A DNA stretch of 64,000 bases from Thermoplasmata archaeon. GTDB taxonomy: Archaea > Thermoplasmatota > Thermoplasmata > Lutacidiplasmatales > UBA184. The translations under genes and the position numbers were made by a program. The stretch spans positions 1 through 64,000 of the forward strand of contig JAGWLG010000009.1 in assembly GCA_028864975.1 (NCBI GenBank), in the 5' to 3' direction. The notes under the pieces were generated by a model, which saw nothing but the letters and a program-made list of their open reading frames with translations, was not told the origin of the DNA and searched no databases. Shown one piece after another: positions 1 to 8,018 of the stretch. How positions within the stretch are numbered: the first letter of the stretch is position 1; the number at the start of each line of letters is the position of its first letter.

Positions 1-2
1 GG

Positions 3-137
3 GAGGTGTACGGGTCCCTCGCTCACCTCGGAGAACGGTTCGGCCGGGTGGCCCCGGAGACCCTGGAGGATGCGAAAACTCTCCTCAGCCGTTCGGTGGC
101 TCCACCGTCAGGGCGCAAGGCTTGCGGTCAACAATAG
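3..137 (+). CDS. 3' end of an unidentified CDS entering from the left edge (EVYGSLAHLGERFGRVAPETLEDAKTLLSRSVAPPSGRKACGQQ*)
   Basis: Manually translated open frame from nt 3 to TAG at 135-137; too short to assign. Confidence 0.35.
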   Translation, partial: EVYGSLAHLGERFGRVAPETLEDAKTLLSRSVAPPSGRKACGQQ

Positions 138-307
138 GTCCAGAGGCCCTCCCCTCCCTCCAAGGCGTGGGCGTTCCAGCGACCCGGGAGGGTCAGCCGC
201 GGAGCATGAACCATCTCCAAGATCATGTGGTCGAACGCCTCCTTCGCCTCTGACGGCAAGCCCCGGACGGAAACGATCGCCTCCGGGCTCACTGTAACCT
301 GAACCAT
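128..307 (-). pseudogene. RelE/ParE-like toxin, apparently C-terminally truncated (59 aa)
   Basis: Manual translation MVQVTVSPEAIVSVRGLPSEAKEAFDHMILEMVHAPRLTLPGRWNAHALEGGEGLWTYC*. The ATG directly follows the upstream antitoxin stop (TGAATG). The H.LEG...LW segment resembles RelE, but the usual R-V-G-x-YR-x-x-Y strand is missing. Confidence 0.45.
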
Positions 308-526
308 TCAGTCCCGCCGAAGTCCCAGGCGAGGCCTCGCTTCGAGGTAGGGGACCGCAGGACGCCTCAGTTCCTCCTCGGCCCAGGCTAAGAATTGCGC
401 TGGGGGTATGGCGTCCATGAACTCCTTGAGCACCTCCGCGTAGGTCTTCCCCCCGACCTTGTAGACCTTCAGTCGGCTGAGAACCGAACTGGGGACCGTG
501 ATCGTCGTCGCCGTGCCGGAATGCAT
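308..526 (-). CDS. Small archaeal antitoxin-like DNA-binding protein (72 aa)
   Basis: MHSGTATTITVPSSVLSRLKVYKVGGKTYAEVLKEFMD matches the TTI.V....+..L...K..G.TY.EV+ pattern of archaeal RHH-type/VapB-like antitoxins; coupled to the downstream toxin-like ORF. Confidence 0.65.
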   Translation of the reverse strand: MHSGTATTITVPSSVLSRLKVYKVGGKTYAEVLKEFMDAIPPAQFLAWAEEELRRPAVPYLEARPRLGLRRD

Positions 527-596
527 CGGGATGACATTGTCGCAATTGCAGATAGCTATTGCCGGGGACGCCCCTGACACTCCACTCTCTCCCCTT

Positions 597-667
597 GGAT
601 CGAACCGCCCCGCGATTCGAATACTCGATGGGCCGGCGCGGATTCGACCGCTTGTGGTGGTGGGGAC
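597..667 (-). repeat. att-like junction A: tRNA-Val 3'-end copy with L1 arm and degenerate R1 inverted repeat
   Basis: tgggccggcgcggattcga at 629 (18/19 identical to the tRNA 3' end), cgcttgtggtggtggggac at 649-667, and GGATCGAACCGC/GCGATTCGAATAC at 597-624. Confidence 0.85.
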
Positions 668-681
668 TGCGAGTCTAGCCT

Positions 682-1032
682 TCAGCGGCGCTTCCGCCCC
701 GGGAACCACTTGTCATACGTAGCGTGGTCCACGATCCGTAAGATGACCACGACTTTTCGTCCGTCAAACCGAACGATAGTGTAGAGGAGACGCCAGAAGC
801 CTGGAAGGTCTTCCACGAAGAGGTTCTCTAGGCCGTAGGCAAGACGGAACGCGGCAGGAACGAATTTCCCCCGGACCACCTCCCCGTGCACGGCATCCCG
901 AAGGAGGATCGGCTTCAGGTCCCGCAAACGCCGAAGGACCGAAGCGGCCTCCGGCCGGGGGTCCTCGAGCAATCGGTCGAAGTCCTTGGCCGCGTCCTCG
1001 TTCAGGCGGACCTCGTCCGCGGGGACACCCAT
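682..1032 (-). CDS. Putative RelE/ParE-like toxin, copy 1 (116 aa)
   Basis: MGVPADEVRLN...LENLFVEDLPGFWRLLYTI...ILRIVDHATYDKWF. The start overlaps the antitoxin stop (TGATG). RelE-like secondary pattern; 99/116 aa identical to 4673-5023. Confidence 0.7.
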   Translation of the reverse strand: MGVPADEVRLNEDAAKDFDRLLEDPRPEAASVLRRLRDLKPILLRDAVHGEVVRGKFVPAAFRLAYGLENLFVEDLPGFWRLLYTIVRFDGRKVVVILRIVDHATYDKWFPGRKRR

Positions 1033-1331
1033 CAGAGCGGCCGCCCAGCGCGGATCGACCGCACGAGGCCCTCGGATGCGTGGGGAACCCACAGAATCCC
1101 CTTGCTTCCTTCCACGATGCACCCTTCGTCTGCCAGGAACCCTAGCACAGCGTTGAGGGTCGGCCGGTTCGTGCTGTGCCCCCACTGGGCAAGTGTCTCG
1201 AGGAGAATGTTGCGGCTCACCGGCTCACCAGCCAGCCGTAGCGCCCCTCGAACGTACTCGATGAGCTCGAGGGTGGGGTTCGCTCCCTTGCGCGCGTGCT
1301 CGAGGCGGGGAGGGTGGGTGGCGATGGCCAT
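1032..1331 (-). CDS. Winged-helix protein, putative antitoxin, copy 1 (99 aa)
   Basis: MAIATHPPRLEH...TLNAVLGFLADEGCIVEGSKGILWV shows a wHTH-like helix/wing. It lies upstream of and is translationally coupled to the toxin; 94/99 aa identical to 5023-5322. Confidence 0.7.
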   Translation of the reverse strand: MAIATHPPRLEHARKGANPTLELIEYVRGALRLAGEPVSRNILLETLAQWGHSTNRPTLNAVLGFLADEGCIVEGSKGILWVPHASEGLVRSIRAGRPL

Positions 1332-1502
1332 CAGTGTATGCATACGTGGAGTCCATATGAACATACAGTCCCCATCAGGTTTTCCTTCCGCACGGGCCTC
1401 ACGGCGACGCTCATCCTCCGCTGCGACCGTCCCCTCTTGCAAACCGCGACTGGCGATCCGGCTCCTGGCTCATCGAGGTCAAAGACCTCGGTTTGGCACA
1501 AA

Positions 1503-1576
1503 GGGACTGGAACCGCGATGGCGGTTCGAATCCACATGGGCCGGGGCGGACCCACCAGCAAACGGGTTTGAGTCCC
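1503..1576 (-). repeat. att-like junction B
   Basis: tgggccggggcgga at 1537 (14 nt identical to the tRNA 3' end), inverted repeat GGACTGGAACCGC-gatg-GCGGTTCGAATCC at 1504-1533, and an inverted T-arm-like gggtttgagtccc at 1564-1576. Confidence 0.85.
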
Positions 1577-1627
1577 CTCAATTCGCCACGATACGACTCT
1601 TGGGGACCCCGCGTAGGACACGAATAG

Positions 1628-2377
1628 ATGTACCAGCGACCTCTACTCGGAGCGATGAACACGACCCTTGCCACGCAAGCCGTGGTGTTCGACCTCTTTC
1701 ACACCTTGGTCACGCCCGAGGCGGTCCACGCCAACGCATACCTGCGAACTTCCCGCATGGCTGCCGCTCTGCGCCTCGACGCTGCCGATTTCGAACGCTG
1801 GTGGGTGGATTCAAAGGACGAACGAAACCGAGCTCGGAGCCCGACAGTCGCCGATCGCATTGCTCAATATTGCACCAGAATAGGTCGCCCGAGGACCGTG
1901 GGAGATGTCGAAGCCGCGCTCTTCGCAGCGGACCGATACCACGACGTTGCCATTCAGTTCCCCCCCTCGGAAGTACTGGGGGCATTGGCCCAACTCCGGA
2001 AGAGAAAGCTCCAAGTTGGGATTCTGAGCAACGCGGATGAACACGAGGTCCGTGCGTGGCCGGACTCCCCGATCGCTCGTCTTGTGGACGCTGCTTCGAT
2101 CTCGGTCGACTCCGGGCTCGTGAAGCCCGAGCCAGCGGCTTATCGAGGGATCCTAGCTGCCCTTGGAGGCGTATCACCCTCTGCTACGATGTACGTCGGG
2201 GACGGCGAGAGCGGCGAACTCGTAGCCGCCAAGCAGCTGGGTTTTCAACCGGTGGTCTTCATGAGAGGATTCGTGACGGGGAACGGGTTTCAGACACCAG
2301 CCAATATCCAGCAACTCTCGACCCAGGCGGACCACACGATAGACCGCATCGATGAGACACTGCAGTATCTGCGGTAG
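1628..2377 (+). CDS. HAD-superfamily hydrolase (cassette cargo)
   Basis: Motifs VVFDLFHTL, LSN, KP and YVGDG; the start may be the ATG at 1655. Confidence 0.85.
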   Translation: MYQRPLLGAMNTTLATQAVVFDLFHTLVTPEAVHANAYLRTSRMAAALRLDAADFERWWVDSKDERNRARSPTVADRIAQYCTRIGRPRTVGDVEAALFAADRYHDVAIQFPPSEVLGALAQLRKRKLQVGILSNADEHEVRAWPDSPIARLVDAASISVDSGLVKPEPAAYRGILAALGGVSPSATMYVGDGESGELVAAKQLGFQPVVFMRGFVTGNGFQTPANIQQLSTQADHTIDRIDETLQYLR

Positions 2378-2395
2378 GGGCCCACGGGATCCCAC

Positions 2396-2443
2396 AATTC
2401 GAAGTGGGCCGGGGCGGATTCGAACGCTTGTGGTGGTGGGGAC
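2396..2443 (-). repeat. att-like junction C
   Basis: tgggccggggcggattcgaac at 2405 (21 nt identical to the tRNA 3' end), cgcttgtggtggtggggac at 2425-2443, and an aattcgaag arm. Confidence 0.9.
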
Positions 2444-2564
2444 CATTGAACGCGGTTCTTTCCACGGTGGAGGTTCACTCGGCCAGGGGTCCTCGTCCCG
2501 CTCTCCCGCCCATGGGCGGGCGAAAGGGCATAGCCCAACAGAGGAATAGAGGGTCTCGTGAGCT

Positions 2565-3548
2565 ATGGCCAGCACCAAGTCTCGAAGGAGTACTTCCTCG
2601 AAGCCGATCTCCAAACCCCCCGAGGAAGGCTGGGCTCTCGCCAGGACCCGACCTCTAAGGGGGCAGGTGGCCGTGGTCGCGGGAGGCACGCGGGGGGCTG
2701 GTCGCGCAATTGCCGTCTCGCTCGGCCTTGCTGGGGCAACGGTCTACGTAACGGGGAGGAGCGTTCGAGGTCACCCCGCGACGCCCGGGCGCCCCGAAAC
2801 CATCGACCAGACCGCAGAGATGATCCGGGCGCTAGGTGGCCGTGCCGTCGCGGTGCGCGTCGACCATACCGAGGAGAGCGAAGTGCGTCGATTCTTCGAA
2901 CAGGTCCGGCGAGAGCAACGGGGGAAACTGGACGTCCTCGTCAACGACATCTGGGGCGGAGAACCGCTGATCGAGTGGGGCAAGGCACCTTGGGAGATGA
3001 CCTGGCGAATGGGTCGCACGCTCATTGAGCGCGCGGTGTTCACGCACATTCTGACGAGCCGCTATGCCGTTCCCCTCATGGTGGCCCGCAAGTCTGGGAC
3101 GATCTTCGAGGTTACCGACGGGGCGCATTTGCAATATCGTGGCAGCTACTTCTACGATTTTGTCAAGTCCTCAGTGATTCGGATGGCCCTCGCGTACCAT
3201 GAGGAATTTGAGGAGGCGGGGCTGCGGAGAATGAGCACGATAGCGGTAACCCCAGGATACCTCCGTTCGGAGTACATGCTCGATCAATTCGGGGTCAGAG
3301 AGGAGAATTGGCGAGACGGAATTCCGCAAGCAGGCCCGGGGTATCGCCACTCCGAGACTCCGTACTACTTGGCGCGGGGCGTGGTGGCGCTTGCCGCGGA
3401 CCCTATGCGAAGAAGGTATTCCGGAAAGGTCGTCGGGAGCTGGACGCTCGGGCACAGGTACGGGTTCACCGATAGGGATGGGACCCAGCCGGACTGGGGG
3501 GCGTACTTCTATCCCAAGTACATGAAAGGCGTCGAGCCCACCTCCTGA
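2565..3548 (+). CDS. Short-chain dehydrogenase/reductase, DHRS1-like (cassette cargo)
   Basis: VAVVAGGTRGAG nucleotide-binding motif, LDVLVND, and the YYDFVK (YxxxK) catalytic motif. Confidence 0.9.
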   Translation: MASTKSRRSTSSKPISKPPEEGWALARTRPLRGQVAVVAGGTRGAGRAIAVSLGLAGATVYVTGRSVRGHPATPGRPETIDQTAEMIRALGGRAVAVRVDHTEESEVRRFFEQVRREQRGKLDVLVNDIWGGEPLIEWGKAPWEMTWRMGRTLIERAVFTHILTSRYAVPLMVARKSGTIFEVTDGAHLQYRGSYFYDFVKSSVIRMALAYHEEFEEAGLRRMSTIAVTPGYLRSEYMLDQFGVREENWRDGIPQAGPGYRHSETPYYLARGVVALAADPMRRRYSGKVVGSWTLGHRYGFTDRDGTQPDWGAYFYPKYMKGVEPTS

Positions 3549-3631
3549 AGGACCCACGCCCAGCATGCTCTCGGGCAGCGGCGGGTGTTCGATTCTCGTG
3601 TTACCGCTCGAGGGCGACCGCCACGACCGAG

Positions 3632-3677
3632 AATTCAAATGGGCCGGGGTGGGTTCACAACGTCCGGCGGTTCGAAT
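3632..3677 (-). repeat. att-like junction D (most degenerate)
   Basis: tgggccggggtgggttc at 3640 (15/17 identical to the tRNA 3' end), an aattcaaa arm like junction C, and cggcggttcgaat at 3665-3677, a 13-nt tRNA T-arm match in inverted orientation. Confidence 0.7.
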
Positions 3678-3746
3678 GCCGCATGGGTACATGGTGCCGC
3701 CTGCTACGCACAAAGTGTATCTTCAGTCCCTGCTGATCGCTGCGCG

Positions 3747-3965
3747 ATGAAGTACGAAGAGTTCCGCGACGCGATCACGATCCATCTTCGCTTGCACCGG
3801 CGGGGCGCCACGTGGGCAGACCTCAAGGAGGGTCTGGGCCTTCCCCAACGGACGGCCTGCCCTACGTGGGTCCGCCGGATGGAGGAGGAGGTCGGCCTCC
3901 GCCGGGAGCACGGACCCGATGGCATGATCTGGCAGATCCGTGCGAAGAAGGGGGGTCGCAGGTGA
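3747..3965 (+). CDS. Small HTH-like hypothetical protein (72 aa)
   Basis: MKYEEFRDAITIHLRLHRRGATWADLKEGLGLPQRTACPTWVRRMEEEVGL shows a helix-turn-helix/wing-like pattern; its stop overlaps the dinB-like GTG. Confidence 0.6.
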   Translation: MKYEEFRDAITIHLRLHRRGATWADLKEGLGLPQRTACPTWVRRMEEEVGLRREHGPDGMIWQIRAKKGGRR

Positions 3966-4474
3966 CCGAACTCGAGGCCATCCGGACTTTCTTTCGGTTC
4001 AACTCCCGCGTTCGCCAAAATTACTTGGACACGATCCTAAAGCTTCCCTCAGACGAGCGCCTGAAGGACCGTGGCGCCTCCTTCCCCTCCCTCCAGGAGG
4101 TGTTTTGCCACGTGCTCGATGGCATCCGCTGGTGGGTAGAGTACGTTCCGCAGGATCGTGCGGCGGACGCGAATCAGCTCCCCGCTCGCGAACTCTCGCC
4201 GGAGCAACTCCGCGCAGAGACGGAGAAGGCCGACCGAATGGCGTTGGACTACGTCACCCATCTGACCGAGGCGGACATGACGAAGGACATGGTCTGTCAC
4301 TTTCCCGGTGATGACGGCCCACAGGAAGCACGCTTCCCGATCAAGGATGTCCTCTGGCATTTGGTCGAGGAGGAACTCCAGCACCGGGGCGAGCTCAATG
4401 CCCTCCTCTGGCAGATAGACGTGGAACCCCCCATCGCGAAAGTGGAGGATTGGAACGCATCGAAGGAGAAGTGA
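3962..4474 (+). CDS. DinB/YfiT family protein (170 aa)
   Basis: His motifs VFCHVL and LWHLVEEELQHRGELNALLWQ, typical of the DinB four-helix bundle. Confidence 0.85.
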   Translation: MTELEAIRTFFRFNSRVRQNYLDTILKLPSDERLKDRGASFPSLQEVFCHVLDGIRWWVEYVPQDRAADANQLPARELSPEQLRAETEKADRMALDYVTHLTEADMTKDMVCHFPGDDGPQEARFPIKDVLWHLVEEELQHRGELNALLWQIDVEPPIAKVEDWNASKEK

Positions 4475-4527
4475 ACGCCAACGGAGGATGCTTTCTAGGA
4501 GTCCTCCTGGTCTCGTCGTCTCGAGAT

Positions 4528-4599
4528 GGACTCGAACCGTCCTACGGTTCGAATCCTCCATGGGCCGGGGCGGATTCGGACGCTTGTGGTGGTGGGGAC
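4528..4599 (-). repeat. att-like junction E (best-preserved full unit)
   Basis: GGACTCGAACCGT-cct-ACGGTTCGAATCC (12/13 paired), tcca, tgggccggggcggattcg (18 nt identical to the tRNA 3' end), and cgcttgtggtggtggggac at 4581-4599. Confidence 0.9.
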
Positions 4600-4672
4600 A
4601 GCCAACCCCTGCCATCCGGTACCGGCATGGCACTCCCAGGCGGGAACGCGGGGCTTGAAGGGCGCGAGGAGG

Positions 4673-5023
4673 TCAGTGACGCTTTCGTCCCGGGAACCAC
4701 TTATCGTAGGTGGCATGGTCCACGATCCGAAGGATAAGCACGACCTTTCGTCCGTCGAATCGAACGATGGTATAGAGGAGGCGCCAGTAGCTTGGAAGGT
4801 CCTCCACGAAGAGGTTCTCCAGGTCGTAGGAAAGGCGGAGCGAGGAGGGGATGAATTTCCCACGTACGACCTCCCCGTGCAATGCATCTCGAAGGAGGAT
4901 CGGTTTCAGGTCCCGCACTCGCCGAAGGACCGATGCGGCCTCCGGCCGCGTATCTTCGACCAAGCGGTCGAAATCCCTAGTCCCATCCTCGTTCAGGCGG
5001 ACCTCGTCCGCAGGAACCCCCAT
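4673..5023 (-). CDS. Putative RelE/ParE-like toxin, copy 2 (116 aa)
   Basis: Paralog of 682-1032 with the same TGATG coupling. Confidence 0.7.
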   Translation of the reverse strand: MGVPADEVRLNEDGTRDFDRLVEDTRPEAASVLRRVRDLKPILLRDALHGEVVRGKFIPSSLRLSYDLENLFVEDLPSYWRLLYTIVRFDGRKVVLILRIVDHATYDKWFPGRKRH

Positions 5024-5322
5024 CAGAGCGACCGCCCCGCACGGATTGACCGCGCGAGGCCTTCCGAAGCCTGGGGGACCCACAGGATTCCCTTGCTCCC
5101 TTCGACGATGCACCCCTCGTCCGCCAGGAAACCCAGTACTGCGTTGAGGGTCGGCCGGTTCGTGCTGTGACCCCAATGGGCGAGTGTTTCGAGGAGAATG
5201 TTCCGGCTCACGGGCTCACCGGCCAGCCGCAGTGCTCCCCGAACGTACTCGATCATCTCGAGGGTGGGATTCGCACCCTTCCGGGCGTGCTCGAGGCGGG
5301 GAGGGTGGGTCGCAATGGCCAT
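5023..5322 (-). CDS. Winged-helix protein, putative antitoxin, copy 2 (99 aa)
   Basis: Paralog of 1032-1331; TATA-like TTTATA about 25 nt upstream on the minus strand (probably leaderless). Confidence 0.7.
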   Translation of the reverse strand: MAIATHPPRLEHARKGANPTLEMIEYVRGALRLAGEPVSRNILLETLAHWGHSTNRPTLNAVLGFLADEGCIVEGSKGILWVPQASEGLARSIRAGRSL

Positions 5323-5437
5323 CAGTGTATGTATGCGTAGAGCCCCTATAAACGTATACCCCCATGGAGGTCGTCTTCCCTAAGGGACCCTAGGCTCCCT
5401 GCACCTCGCGGGAGTTGCCCCTCTCGGTGGGTGTGAC

Positions 5438-5495
5438 GGGACTCGACCCCCCCCGGTTTCGAATCCTCCATGGGCCGGGGCGGATTCGAACCGCC
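5438..5495 (-). repeat. att-like junction F: intact tRNA 3' end followed by the R1 arm
   Basis: On the minus strand the tRNA end CCGGCCCA is followed by TGGAGGATTCGAAACC-G8-TCGAGTCCC, the same arm as at junctions A, B and E. Confidence 0.85.
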
Positions 5496-5543
5496 GATCT
5501 GCGCGTTGTAAGCGCGCCGTCATCACCCCTAGACCACCGGCCC
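5471..5543 (-). tRNA. tRNA-Val (TAC)
   Basis: GGGCCGGTGGTCTAGGGGTGATGACGGCGCGCTTACAACGCGCAGATCGGCGGTTCGAATCCGCCCCGGCCCA folds as a cloverleaf; anticodon loop CTTACAA; no encoded CCA. Confidence 0.97.
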
Positions 5544-5573: not shown

Positions 5574-7442
5574 TCAACCGACCGGCGGAGCCTCGGGGGG
5601 AGATGGCACGGGTGGGGGGGCGGTGCTCCGTGTCCGCTCCTCACCGTGCGCTCGATGTCGGACCTTAACGACGAGACCCCGGGGAAGCCGCCCCATCCAT
5701 GGCCCCGGGACGCGGGCCTCTCCGACACCGAGAACCTCTCCGTTCCGAAGGAGGAGCACCTCGTCTCCCCGACGGAGCGCCGGGTCCCCCCGCTCTACCC
5801 CTGGGGCGAAGAGATCCCCCCGGAGCTCGACACCCCCCCGGACCTCGACCCGGTACCCGTCGGCGGCGCTCACGATCTTGCGAGCCCCCGGCACGGTCAA
5901 GCGCCAGAGCCCGGTCTCCTCCTTCCAGGTCGCGAGGTCCTGGTGGTCCGTGGAGATCAACCGCTGGAACCAGGGCCGTCCCATGAGCCGTACCTCCCCC
6001 TCGAACAGCCGGTCCGCGATGGTCGGCCCGAACTGGACCTGCGCCAGCGCCCGGAGCTCCTCGCGCACCCGCGCGAGCGGGCCCCCGGCCGCGGCGCGTT
6101 CCCTCGACAAGGCCAAGCGCCTCATCTCCGACGACAGGGCGGAGAGCGACGCGGAGGACGTCGTCGCGCTACCCTCGACCGTCCAGGCCACCTTCTCGGG
6201 GGGAAGGAGGTCCTTCAACCAGGCGTACTCCTCGCTTGGTAGGTGGGCGACGACCGCGCGATATCCTCCCGTTCTCAACAGATGCTGGAGCGCATCGCGC
6301 ACCCAGCGCCGCTCATCCTCGTCCCAGGCCCCGGTGACCGGGATGTCGTAGTTCCGGGCCGGGTAGACCGCTTCGAGCTCCCTCGGGACCAGGCCCAGGG
6401 GGGAGGTCACCGATGCCCAGTGGACACCCAGCCCCGGGGGCAGGCCCTCGAGCGAGCGCGCGATGCGCCGGTGGGTGGGCGAAGACGCGTACGGTTTGGT
6501 CTTCGAACAGGGGACCAGCAGGAGGGTCCGTTTGGAAGAGGGGGGACGGTACCGCTCCAGGAACCGTTGTCGGAAGCGTTCGACCTCGGGGCGGCGCAAA
6601 GCCTCCTTGGTCGTGTACGGGCGGACACCGGCCCCGGTCACGGGGGCATGAATCTCCTGGAACGGCGCCCCAAGGGTATCGTAGTAGCGCAGGAGCTCCC
6701 CACGGCAAGGCTCCGGGACCAGACGGGCCTCGACCAGTTCGCGAAGCCGACCTGCACCTGCGAAACGTCGCACCCGAGCAAGCTCGTCGAGGTACTCCTG
6801 TTCCACGGCGGCAGCCCGCTGGAGTAACGGGGGGCGTGCCCGCGCCGTGTCAGCCCCGTCCAGGTCCTCGGCATCCGCCGAGAGCTCTCTCCCTGCACCA
6901 GCGGCGAGAAGGCCCTGGGTCGTGTCCACTAGGTCGATCCCCATGGCGAAGAGCAACGAGAGCCTGCCGGGAGTAGCGACCCGAGGGGCCCAGAGCATGG
7001 GGGCAGGCCCCGCGGCCTCCCTCAGAGCGATCGCTCCTTTGACGAAACCCTCGGTATCGGTGAAAGTGGCACGGGCGTTCATCCAGACGACAAGGTCCCA
7101 CGGCTCCTCCCGAAGTGCCTGGGAGGTGGGTACGGAGAGCGGGGTCCTCACGCCGAGCACCCGAGGGGCCAGGCGCTGACCTGGCCCGGACGTCCCGGAG
7201 ACCTCAGGGACCGCGACCTCGACCGCCAGTTCGAGGACCCTCTCCCCTTGCCTCCACCGGAGGGCTCTCCGCATCGGGCCACCCGACCCTCCCTCCTCGA
7301 GGACCGCAACCCCGGGCTCCAGCGTCCGTTCCGCCGTTCCGCGCGGAGTGGACCTGAGCACGCCCGGAAGCGTGAGCTGCAGCTCGCCTACAGTGCCCTC
7401 CCCCACGAGGGTGGCCCCGTCGAGCCGGGAGCAGGAGCGCAT
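5574..7442 (-). CDS. arcS: Archaeosine synthase subunit alpha (TGT-like domain + DUF5591-type domain + PUA)
   Basis: LLLVPCSKTKPYASSPTH and SVTSPLGLVPRELEAVYPARNYDIPVTG motifs; C-terminal PUA (GDLFAPGV...GDEV). Confidence 0.9.
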   Translation of the reverse strand: MRSCSRLDGATLVGEGTVGELQLTLPGVLRSTPRGTAERTLEPGVAVLEEGGSGGPMRRALRWRQGERVLELAVEVAVPEVSGTSGPGQRLAPRVLGVRTPLSVPTSQALREEPWDLVVWMNARATFTDTEGFVKGAIALREAAGPAPMLWAPRVATPGRLSLLFAMGIDLVDTTQGLLAAGAGRELSADAEDLDGADTARARPPLLQRAAAVEQEYLDELARVRRFAGAGRLRELVEARLVPEPCRGELLRYYDTLGAPFQEIHAPVTGAGVRPYTTKEALRRPEVERFRQRFLERYRPPSSKRTLLLVPCSKTKPYASSPTHRRIARSLEGLPPGLGVHWASVTSPLGLVPRELEAVYPARNYDIPVTGAWDEDERRWVRDALQHLLRTGGYRAVVAHLPSEEYAWLKDLLPPEKVAWTVEGSATTSSASLSALSSEMRRLALSRERAAAGGPLARVREELRALAQVQFGPTIADRLFEGEVRLMGRPWFQRLISTDHQDLATWKEETGLWRLTVPGARKIVSAADGYRVEVRGGVELRGDLFAPGVERGDPALRRGDEVLLLRNGEVLGVGEARVPGPWMGRLPRGLVVKVRHRAHGEERTRSTAPPPVPSPPEAPPVG

Positions 7443-7531: not shown

Positions 7532-7867
7532 CTAGCTCGACTTCTTGGTGCGGCCCCCGCGTTCCTGCGAGGGGAAGTAGGTCTGCCAGGCGTTGACCAG
7601 CGTCTCACGCCGCTCCGACCCCGCATCCTTCCGTCCCTTGCGGCCGAAGAGGGGGTCGTGGTTGTCTCGAACCACGCGGAGGAAGCTCTCCGGGTTCTGG
7701 CTCGCCAGTTCGAAACCGTAGAGCATGAACTCCCGCAGCAAGCTGGACCGCCCCCTCCACCCGATCCTCCGCCGGACCATCGGGTTGAGCGCTCGCTTCG
7801 CGAGCCTCCATACGTCGGTCGTCGTCTTGTAATCCTTGCCAGATAGGCCAATCATGACCTGCGGCAT
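7532..7867 (-). CDS. Small basic hypothetical protein, possible ribbon-helix-helix
   Basis: 111-aa ORF with a GGGGA RBS-like sequence and an upstream TTAAATA; strand-helix-helix pattern. Confidence 0.6.
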   Translation of the reverse strand: MPQVMIGLSGKDYKTTTDVWRLAKRALNPMVRRRIGWRGRSSLLREFMLYGFELASQNPESFLRVVRDNHDPLFGRKGRKDAGSERRETLVNAWQTYFPSQERGGRTKKSS

Positions 7868-8018
7868 TTCCCCTCGACGCTCCCAACTTAAGGACGGTAT
7901 TTAACTTCCGCTCGAGAGACCATATATCGGGGGGAACGAGATTCCCCGCCCGAGCCGTGCGAATATCTGCAAATCCGCTAGAATCCGAACAATTCCGCAG
8001 ATCTGAGGCCGTTCGCGC

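Follow-up and report, generated by a model that had tools for sequence, protein, structure and literature searches.

How does a row of single genes, none of them encoding a recombinase, come to be stacked beside one tRNA gene, each separated from the next by a copy of that gene's 3′ end? The question arises at the left end of a 64,000-nucleotide stretch of DNA (the window) from a Thermoplasmata archaeon (GenBank assembly GCA_028864975.1, contig JAGWLG010000009.1, positions 1 to 64,000), which a first-pass annotation had read as a candidate integron-like capture system anchored on tRNA-Val(TAC). The explanation that we favor, with confidence a little better than even, is that miniature, non-autonomous integrative cassettes have stacked up in tandem at the 3′ end of the tRNA gene, inserted there by a recombinase that would be supplied in trans.

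We refer to the genome with the window as G000; the window is the start of its contig C6, and other contigs are also given by C-numbers. We searched whole genomes for G000 and three other GTDB species of the genus (G001, G002, and G003), and we reached two further species in or near the genus (L056 and L057) via homologues of ArcS. Overall, we compared six species, all of them uncultured Thermoplasmata, and 25 junction-to-junction intervals.

Gene-sized cassettes between copies of a tRNA end

ARAGORN and Rfam agree on one tRNA gene, tRNA-Val(TAC), on the minus strand (Table 1). The last 18 nt of this gene, read on the plus strand (TGGGCCGGGGCGGATTCG), are found in the same orientation without mismatch at 2405, 4561, and 5471 (the gene itself), with one mismatch at 629, and with three mismatches each at 1537 and 3640. 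The window has eight matches to this sequence where 0.35 are expected, and none of 100 shuffled sequences had eight or more. The spacings are exactly 908, 868, 1235, 921, and 910 bp. The first-pass annotation had given the same positions and spacings, and our motif search and shuffles confirm them. Direct repeats identical to the tRNA 3′ end, with the intact tRNA gene at one end, are what elements that target tRNA genes leave; an integrase of their own, which also defines such elements, is missing here. We rejected the idea that the junctions are tRNA pseudogenes or encode tRNA-like RNAs, as Rfam sees the real tRNA alone at E values of up to 0.1.

Each interval had been described as containing exactly one gene or one coupled pair: a toxin-antitoxin pair, a HAD-family hydrolase, a short-chain dehydrogenase/reductase (SDR), a helix-turn-helix (HTH) protein with a DinB-family protein, and a second toxin-antitoxin pair. 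Pfam matches and independent gene calls on the identical DNA of another assembly bear this out, with the pairs overlapping. The claim that no cassette encodes a recombinase also stands (no domain matched, and tblastn gave only noise). The orientations of the cassettes in the window are −, −, +, +, +, and −, and, on inspection of the sequence, the toxin-antitoxin pairs are preceded by a palindrome and a TATA-like box. The cargo is compositionally foreign: its G+C content is 0.61–0.635 as compared to 0.67–0.71 in the core genome, with the rise occurring at ArcS, and its G+C content at third codon positions is 0.67–0.80 as compared to 0.82–0.95.

For the small cargo proteins, searches of NCBIfam and of PDB sequences gave no match. 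From structure prediction, the 116-aa proteins of the two toxin-antitoxin cassettes are assigned to the RelE/ParE superfamily as predicted toxins: the AlphaFold model has a pLDDT (predicted local distance difference test) score of 93.2, every top PDB match is a RelE, ParE, HigB, or YoeB toxin, and 9 of 48 homologues match the ParE_toxin family. A third paralogue of this pair, with 66–70% nucleotide identity, lies outside any recognisable array (C124:12893-13541). We considered whether it adjoins the end of tRNA-Pro and rejected this, since we doubt the tRNA-Pro call and the sequence match appears fortuitous.

A further toxin-antitoxin-like pair had been noted beyond junction A. A putative antitoxin gene and a RelE-like gene are indeed present, the latter truncated by an insertion sequence (IS); it is a putative toxin gene by sequence motif, and its product had no match in searches of Pfam, NCBIfam, and PDB sequences. 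Bases 1-135 are the terminus of this IS (ATTGTTGACCGCAAGCCTTG), which is multi-copy and lies at the contig end, and this is why the contig, and hence the window, starts here. Copies of the terminus are found at C98:1-139, C108:3-141, C36:5258-5397, and C84:14568-14706, and they break the assembly in several places.

Contig C36 (5.4 kb), which ends in the same IS terminus, adds junctions at 1697, 2445, and 3494, all three oriented like those of C6. A second IS is nested within the IS end on C36, with inverted ends (GAGTTTGGGACAGTACC), a 10-bp duplication (ATTGTTGACC), and a 370-aa transposase-like open reading frame (ORF) that has no Pfam match. When we joined C36 to C6 at the target-site duplication and removed the IS in silico, we rebuilt one cassette of about 650 bp with a putative antitoxin and a 91-aa protein that is RelE-like by motif. 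The rebuilt cassette is colinear with a 661-bp cassette in G002 (73% identity over 583 bp). The further copies of the repeat that were expected to the left of nucleotide 1 do exist, on C36, and the array does not begin in the window. It comprises at least nine cassettes, one of them split by the IS; this is a lower bound because C36 begins in another IS-like gene.

Table 1. Coordinates of the cassette array and of adjoining features (window positions).
Feature	Position	Strand	Details
IS terminus	1-135		C98 and C108 start with the same 139 bp and diverge after GGTCAACAATAGG
RelE-like gene truncated by the IS (putative toxin)	128-307	−	59 aa here, 91 aa after IS removal
12-bp target-site duplication of the IS, GGTCCAGAGGCC	137-148		other copy at C36:3648
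Putative antitoxin of the IS-disrupted cassette	308-526	−	72 aa; no family match
Junction A	600-667	+	hairpin-type left arm; core 629-646 (17/18); class I right arm GCTTGTGGTGGTGGGGAC
RelE/ParE-fold predicted toxin and winged HTH (wHTH) putative antitoxin	682-1032 and 1032-1331	−	116 aa and 99 aa
Junction B	1504-1577	+	hairpin GGACTGGAACCGC/GCGGTTCGAATCC; core 1537-1550 (14 nt identical to the tRNA); class IIa right arm CCCACCAGCAAACGGGTTTGAGTCCCC
HAD-family hydrolase	1655-2377	+	Pfam
Junction C	2405-2443	+	core 18/18; class I right arm
SDR	2565-3548	+	327 aa; Pfam
Junction D	3640-3690	+	core of about 10 nt identical to the tRNA; class III right arm TTCACAACGTCCGGCGGTTCGAATGCC
Small HTH-like protein and DinB-family protein	3747-3965 and 3962-4474	+	HTH-like protein 72 aa
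Junction E	4528-4599	+	hairpin GGACTCGAACCG-5 nt-CGGTTCGAATCC; core 4561-4578 (18/18); class I right arm
Paralogue of the pair at 682-1331	4673-5023 and 5023-5322	−	84% nucleotide identity
Left arm of the tRNA-proximal cassette, now the tRNA 3′ trailer	5439-5470	+	
tRNA-Val(TAC), intact anchor (attB side)	5471-5543	−	sole tRNA-Val(TAC) found in the assembly
ArcS, archaeosine synthase	5574-7442	−	first conserved core gene

Modular junction arms and arrays in six species

The junctions consist of more than a repeat of the tRNA end. To the right of the core, we found three or four recurring classes of arm: class I (GGATTCGnaCGCTTGTGGTGGTGGGGAC), class IIa (GGACCCACAAGCAAACnGGTTyGAGTCCCC), class IIb (GGACCCATCC...), and class III (TTCACAACGyCCGGCGGTTCGAATrCC). 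Identity to the tRNA, measured from its 3′ end, extends for 21 nt in class I, 14 nt in class II, and about 10–12 nt in class III, so a common crossover would lie within the acceptor/T-stem part TGGGCCGGGG(CG). To the left of the core, many junctions have a hairpin, GGACTCGAACCG-n(3-5)-CGGTTCGAATCC, which ends 4 nt before the core. The stem of this hairpin has a compensatory change from A-T to G-C in G003, and its second half is a T-arm-like 12-mer. A T-arm-like 12-mer (GGTTCGAATCC) or its complement is present in every arm class and is a putative protein-binding site. Inverted repeats at the junctions are 12 bp long, T-arm-like, and 15 bp apart; this symmetry is absent from classes II and III. 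We saw no sign of attC-like folding: the single-strand DNA folds of six junctions are unexceptional (z of -2.1 to +1.4). Elsewhere in G000, a hairpin that resembles the left arm lies beside a copy of the 3′ end of tRNA-Lys (C83:17657).

The same arms are found beside unrelated cargo. Class I arms are present in G000 (three exact or near-exact copies and two variants), G002 (three copies), G003, L056, and L057, and classes IIa, IIb, and III likewise recur. For example, the arm class of junction D is found again at L056:13560, and junction B is 86% identical over 84 bp to a junction in G002 that has different cargo on both sides. Both arms are kept at every junction, in some 25 units whose cargo is unrelated. 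A search of 401 genomes from the class found the class I arm in this genus alone. In these comparisons the arms travel as modules, conserved across unrelated cargo and across species.

All six species have an array at tRNA-Val(TAC), in a neighborhood whose gene order (UbiD-UbiA-ArcS-tRNA) is kept in all six, and all of the arrays differ. We counted at least two cassettes in G001, seven in G002, two in G003, at least four in L056, and at least two or three in L057. Across the 25 intervals, the median size is 1,095 bp, and sizes cluster near 1 kb. The other arrays carry HEPN/MNT, RHH-PIN, nucleotidyltransferase (NTase), HAD, SnoaL, and hemerythrin genes, and further cargo includes CMD with TetR, a patatin, AhpC, and a protein with prenyl-cyclase repeats. 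The arrays turn over between species. For instance, ArcS from G001 and G002 is 95.4% identical and the right flank is 96.8% identical over 6.8 kb, yet these two species have no orthologous tRNA-proximal cassette in common, and cassettes of the same family are just 69–72% identical. There are also deletion scars inside the G001 array.

The first-pass annotation had placed the newest cassette next to the tRNA, and the comparisons fit growth at that end. The RHH-PIN cassette and a cassette with a 119-aa protein and an NTase adjoin the tRNA in L057 and occupy slots 5 and 6 in G002, behind four others. They have diverged to 66–70% identity, which is similar to ArcS (68.7% for L057 versus G002). This would fit an old shared block followed by tRNA-proximal insertions in the G002 lineage. 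Similarly, a cassette of the HEPN/MNT family is the first from the tRNA in G001, the second in G003, and the third in G002. The G000 member of this family is instead on another contig (C46:36154-37260), with no tRNA nearby and among other toxin-antitoxin-like genes. The cores that flank it are degenerate, one of class II and the other class I-like. Either it was inserted at a secondary site or it is a piece of an array that was displaced. The DinB-like cassette is 83% identical between G000 (C36) and L056, as compared to only 70% for ArcS, which suggests that it was exchanged laterally.

Cassette content was also predicted to differ between related genomes. It does so among all six species, and it is identical within species: the same seven cassettes are found in all 10 assemblies that encode the exact ArcS of G002. 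Some of the genes are truncated in some of these strains (the HAD protein has 226 or 150 aa, and another has 115 or 51 aa), which suggests relaxed selection on the cargo. Each of three genomes from a sister genus has a contig that stops no more than a few hundred bases from the tRNA-Val(TAC) 3′ end (G005:C8:6, G015:C63:453, and G024:C294:5), a hint that this site may have repeats or vary among strains there too.

Candidate recombinases and competing explanations

We found no tyrosine or serine recombinase domain (PF00589 or PF00239) in any of the arrays of the six species. When we compared eight integrases from the genus to all of the arrays with tblastn, we obtained only noise (best E = 0.049), so none of the arrays has an integrase remnant by this search; the first-pass annotation had named deletion remnants of integrase-bearing islands as what would count against it. 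It had also suggested that the rest of the genome be searched for a tyrosine or serine recombinase, and our search tied none to the array. G000 has seven tyrosine recombinases: an orthologue of XerA, one on C23, one at 105.7 kb on C6, and four paralogues on C73. None of the seven has the arms or tRNA-Val-like DNA near it, and we rejected those on C23, C6, and C73 as helpers on this ground. Serine recombinases are limited to one in G000 and a partial one in G002, with none in G001 or G003, so we also rejected a shared serine recombinase.

The integrase on C23 deserves mention because of its location. The assembly graph branches at 7955/7956 of the window, and C23 shares 175 bp with 7781-7955. 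Past the branch, C23 encodes an IS66-family transposase, a 764-aa protein with multiple HTH motifs, and a 415-aa tyrosine integrase. Another assembly, GCA_028867515.1, takes the C23 path at 7955, so some members of the population carry an insertion at this point, which lies 2.4 kb away on the 5′ side of the tRNA. We rejected this enzyme as an attI-linked integrase because the path starts with an IS66-family transposase and is an IS-rich variant.

Public collections (GTDB with one genome per species, JGI metagenomes, and IMG/VR) were also scanned. The class I arm pattern matched only contigs of G002 and G003 in the GTDB set and nothing in the JGI metagenomes. A looser pattern of left arm plus core had six matches in the JGI metagenomes, all of which we rejected as chance matches in unrelated DNA. 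The 18-nt core is present in four IMG/VR contigs (L037–L040), with flanks that lack the arms. We rejected these as helpers because the ORFs of L037 and L038 have no homologue in G000; the flanks of L039 and L040 are near-identical to those of the two that we tested.

Other loci in G000 show what else can accumulate in this genome. At C73:5000-14500, four paralogous tyrosine integrases (60–72% identical) and two partial copies of the gene are spaced every 1.2–2.7 kb, with small cargo. This array of integrases plus cargo contrasts with the integrase-less array at tRNA-Val(TAC). Small integrase-less islets at tRNAs are common in G000: about the last 16 nt are repeated directly 1.6 kb downstream of tRNA-Met(CAT) (C20:14772-16455), 1.1 kb downstream of tRNA-Gln(TTG) (C91:946-2107), and 3.3 kb downstream of tRNA-Val(GAC) (C101:42036-45397). 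These three intervals had no match to an integrase and lack the arms of the tRNA-Val(TAC) array.

According to our favored explanation, the unit would be one gene or a gene pair, in an orientation that is independent of the array. Each cassette would carry an attP-like site, in which a core identical to the 12–21 nt at the end of the tRNA is flanked by the left arm and by a right arm from one of the classes (I, IIa, IIb, or III). A recombinase encoded elsewhere (by a passing virus or plasmid, by another element in the genome, or, less likely, the host's XerA) would join the circular cassette to the tRNA end. Integration would restore the intact tRNA and displace older cassettes outward, so that internal junctions would be attP-like, with one cassette's left arm, the core, and the next one's right arm. 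Deletion could also shorten arrays, and IS elements can insert into them. The circular intermediate is inferred, as are the recombinase (what it is and to which type it belongs) and any present-day activity. What favors the cassettes themselves as the mobile unit is that the arms are kept, that sizes are about 1 kb, and that there is no fragment of an integrase, unlike in the C73 array.

Several results weigh against this explanation. No recombinase is tied to the site, and none of the tRNA-Val(TAC) neighborhoods that we checked in 41 related genomes has an integrase. G001 and G002 contain XerA alone, though both genomes are incomplete (85–89%). No autonomous, integrase-bearing element that shares the arms was found in the GTDB representatives, JGI metagenomes, or IMG/VR, which is weak evidence, as metagenome-assembled genomes are incomplete. 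The cores show no simple gradient of decay away from the tRNA. The order of the cassettes is fixed in the 10 assemblies of the G002 species and in three assemblies of the strain of G000, so movement is rare or has stopped. Finally, the transfer of a 1-kb circle between cells has no explanation.

More tentatively, the arrays may be the product of a dedicated gene-capture system of Thermoplasmata, analogous to integrons, with the 3′ end of the tRNA as its site, modular arms (at least three classes, with GGTTCGAATCC motifs), and a recombinase, encoded away from the locus, by which 1-kb cassettes would enter and leave arrays and pass from one species to another. Host XerA, working on a site other than dif, is one candidate for this enzyme, and a kind of recombinase that has yet to be recognised is another. 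We consider this extension possible, and less probable than the simpler claim.

Among the alternatives, the one that fares best, though we think it unlikely, is that each unit is the residue of a larger element (a virus, plasmid, or island) that carried its own integrase, integrated at the tRNA, and later shed the integrase along with other genes, as has been described for the streptococcal elements known as CIMEs (see below). Tandem integration with later loss of the integrase is documented in archaea (PMC8371274), in bacteria (PMC5704250), and in tycheposon islands. The C73 array, with its two partial integrase genes, lies in the same genome, and the deletion scars in the G001 array are also as expected for remnants. 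But random decay should yield mixed sizes and pseudogenes, as C73 suggests, and instead sizes are tight around 1 kb; and about 25 units from six species retain both arms while none retains a fragment of an integrase.

A somewhat less probable account is that the site-specific step is ancient or extinct, and that the junctions (40–85 bp) now anchor deletions, duplications, and swaps with DNA from relatives by homologous recombination. This would suit the stability of the arrays within species, and the junctions are similar enough (85–100% identical over 39–84 bp, within and between genomes). The same cargo can also have different right arms: HEPN/MNT is found with a class II arm in three genomes and with class I in G002, and the DinB-like cassette has a class I-like arm in C36 and a class III-like arm in L056. 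Shuffling gives no account of where unrelated genes got their arms in the first place, or of why several classes of arm are conserved, and a proximal insertion that restores the exact end of the tRNA is a signature of site-specific integration. Our favored explanation, decay, and homologous shuffling are not mutually exclusive.

That the chromosomal XerA was hijacked to recombine the junctions, with no need for a dedicated integrase (as in the pdif modules discussed below), seems improbable to us. XerA is the only recombinase that is common to the four genomes that we searched whole (66–75% identical among them; best PDB match XerA from Thermoplasma acidophilum, 5HXY, E = 7e-69), and it is the sole tyrosine recombinase in G002, a species with seven cassettes. 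However, the junctions do not resemble dif sites: the 12-bp repeats are 15 bp apart, and classes II and III lack symmetry. Furthermore, every relative that we searched has a recombinase match of XerA strength, yet nearly all of the genomes from other genera have a single copy of the tRNA-end motif. Lastly, chimeric joins or binning errors in a metagenome-assembled genome (a k141 assembly with branch points at 1-139 and 7955) can be dismissed: the cassettes follow one another in the same order, with 99.98–100% identity, in GCA_028867515.1 and in Logan SRR32006840, which are independent assemblies, and five other species, sampled in other studies, have homologous arrays at this tRNA.

Relation to known systems

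Our full-text literature searches returned no description of such arrays in Thermoplasmata, and several known systems share some of their features. In the tandem ssrA-specific islands of Dehalococcoides, insertions are reportedly separated by copies of the 3′ end of a small RNA, as in our array, and each island is said to encode its own integrase. Tandem integrations in archaea are alike in that 3′-end repeats separate the insertions, but these are whole viruses or plasmids, not 1-kb cassettes (PMC8371274). The same 2021 review of archaeal tyrosine recombinases describes tandem integration and integrase loss but no arrays of gene cassettes. The tycheposon islands of Prochlorococcus (bioRxiv 10.1101/2020.12.28.424599) are adjacent to tRNAs, have partial copies of them, and have newcomers that push older elements inward. 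Unlike our units, which are single genes with no trace of an integrase, tycheposons come with a tyrosine recombinase and replication genes of their own, and integrase fragments are found in their islands.

The modules known as pdif or IMEX (integrative mobile elements exploiting Xer) are small, lack recombinases, often carry toxin-antitoxin pairs, and are moved by a host recombinase. They use dif-like sites (11-6-11; in dif, a 6-bp spacer separates inverted 11-bp arms, PMC2958812). A host Xer is present in the genus (the XerA orthologue, in all four genomes), but our junctions have no dif-like site and are anchored on a tRNA gene.

The cis-mobilizable elements (CIMEs) of streptococci, related to ICESt1 and ICESt3, are closer (PMC5704250). 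They keep their att sites and lack genes for integration and transfer, and our cassettes, too, have att-like sites on both sides and no recombination or transfer genes. CIMEs are described as decayed integrative and conjugative or integrative and mobilizable elements, usually of kilobases to tens of kilobases, with few per locus and a known autonomous partner; here, in an archaeon, there are up to nine or more units of about 1 kb, with several arm classes, no remnants, and no known partner.

Integrons and CALINs (clusters of attC sites lacking integron-integrases), including those of archaea (Ghaly et al., PMC9668308), resemble our arrays in their recombinase-free, gene-sized cassettes with toxin-antitoxin pairs and small enzymes, in growth at a fixed end, in content that varies among related genomes, and in having a cassette at a secondary site. 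The integron-like label from the first-pass annotation is apt only in part. Our array has no IntI and no attI beside an integrase; its repeat is 12–21 nt of tRNA identity with arms of a double-strand type rather than a folded attC; and its cassettes point both ways, so there is no common promoter. The locus is not an integron by its integrase, its repeats, or the orientation of its cassettes, but it works like one. By analogy, the working principle is closest to tandem accretion of the CIME type, and the outcome closest to integrons and CALINs, including the archaeal ones.

In practice, such arrays break metagenome assemblies, and island finders that rely on integrases overlook them. If the cassettes do move as recombinase-less units of 1 kb, then three arm classes and a tRNA end would form a compact natural set of att sites for tracing the recombinase that is responsible. 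Archaea would then have a route for acquiring and exchanging single accessory genes that parallels the integrons of bacteria, with a tRNA gene as the docking site, and this would bear on how archaeal pangenomes are built. Among the genes seen in the arrays are toxin-antitoxin pairs, reductases, small hydrolases, and genes for proteins of the DinB, SnoaL, AhpC, and patatin types.

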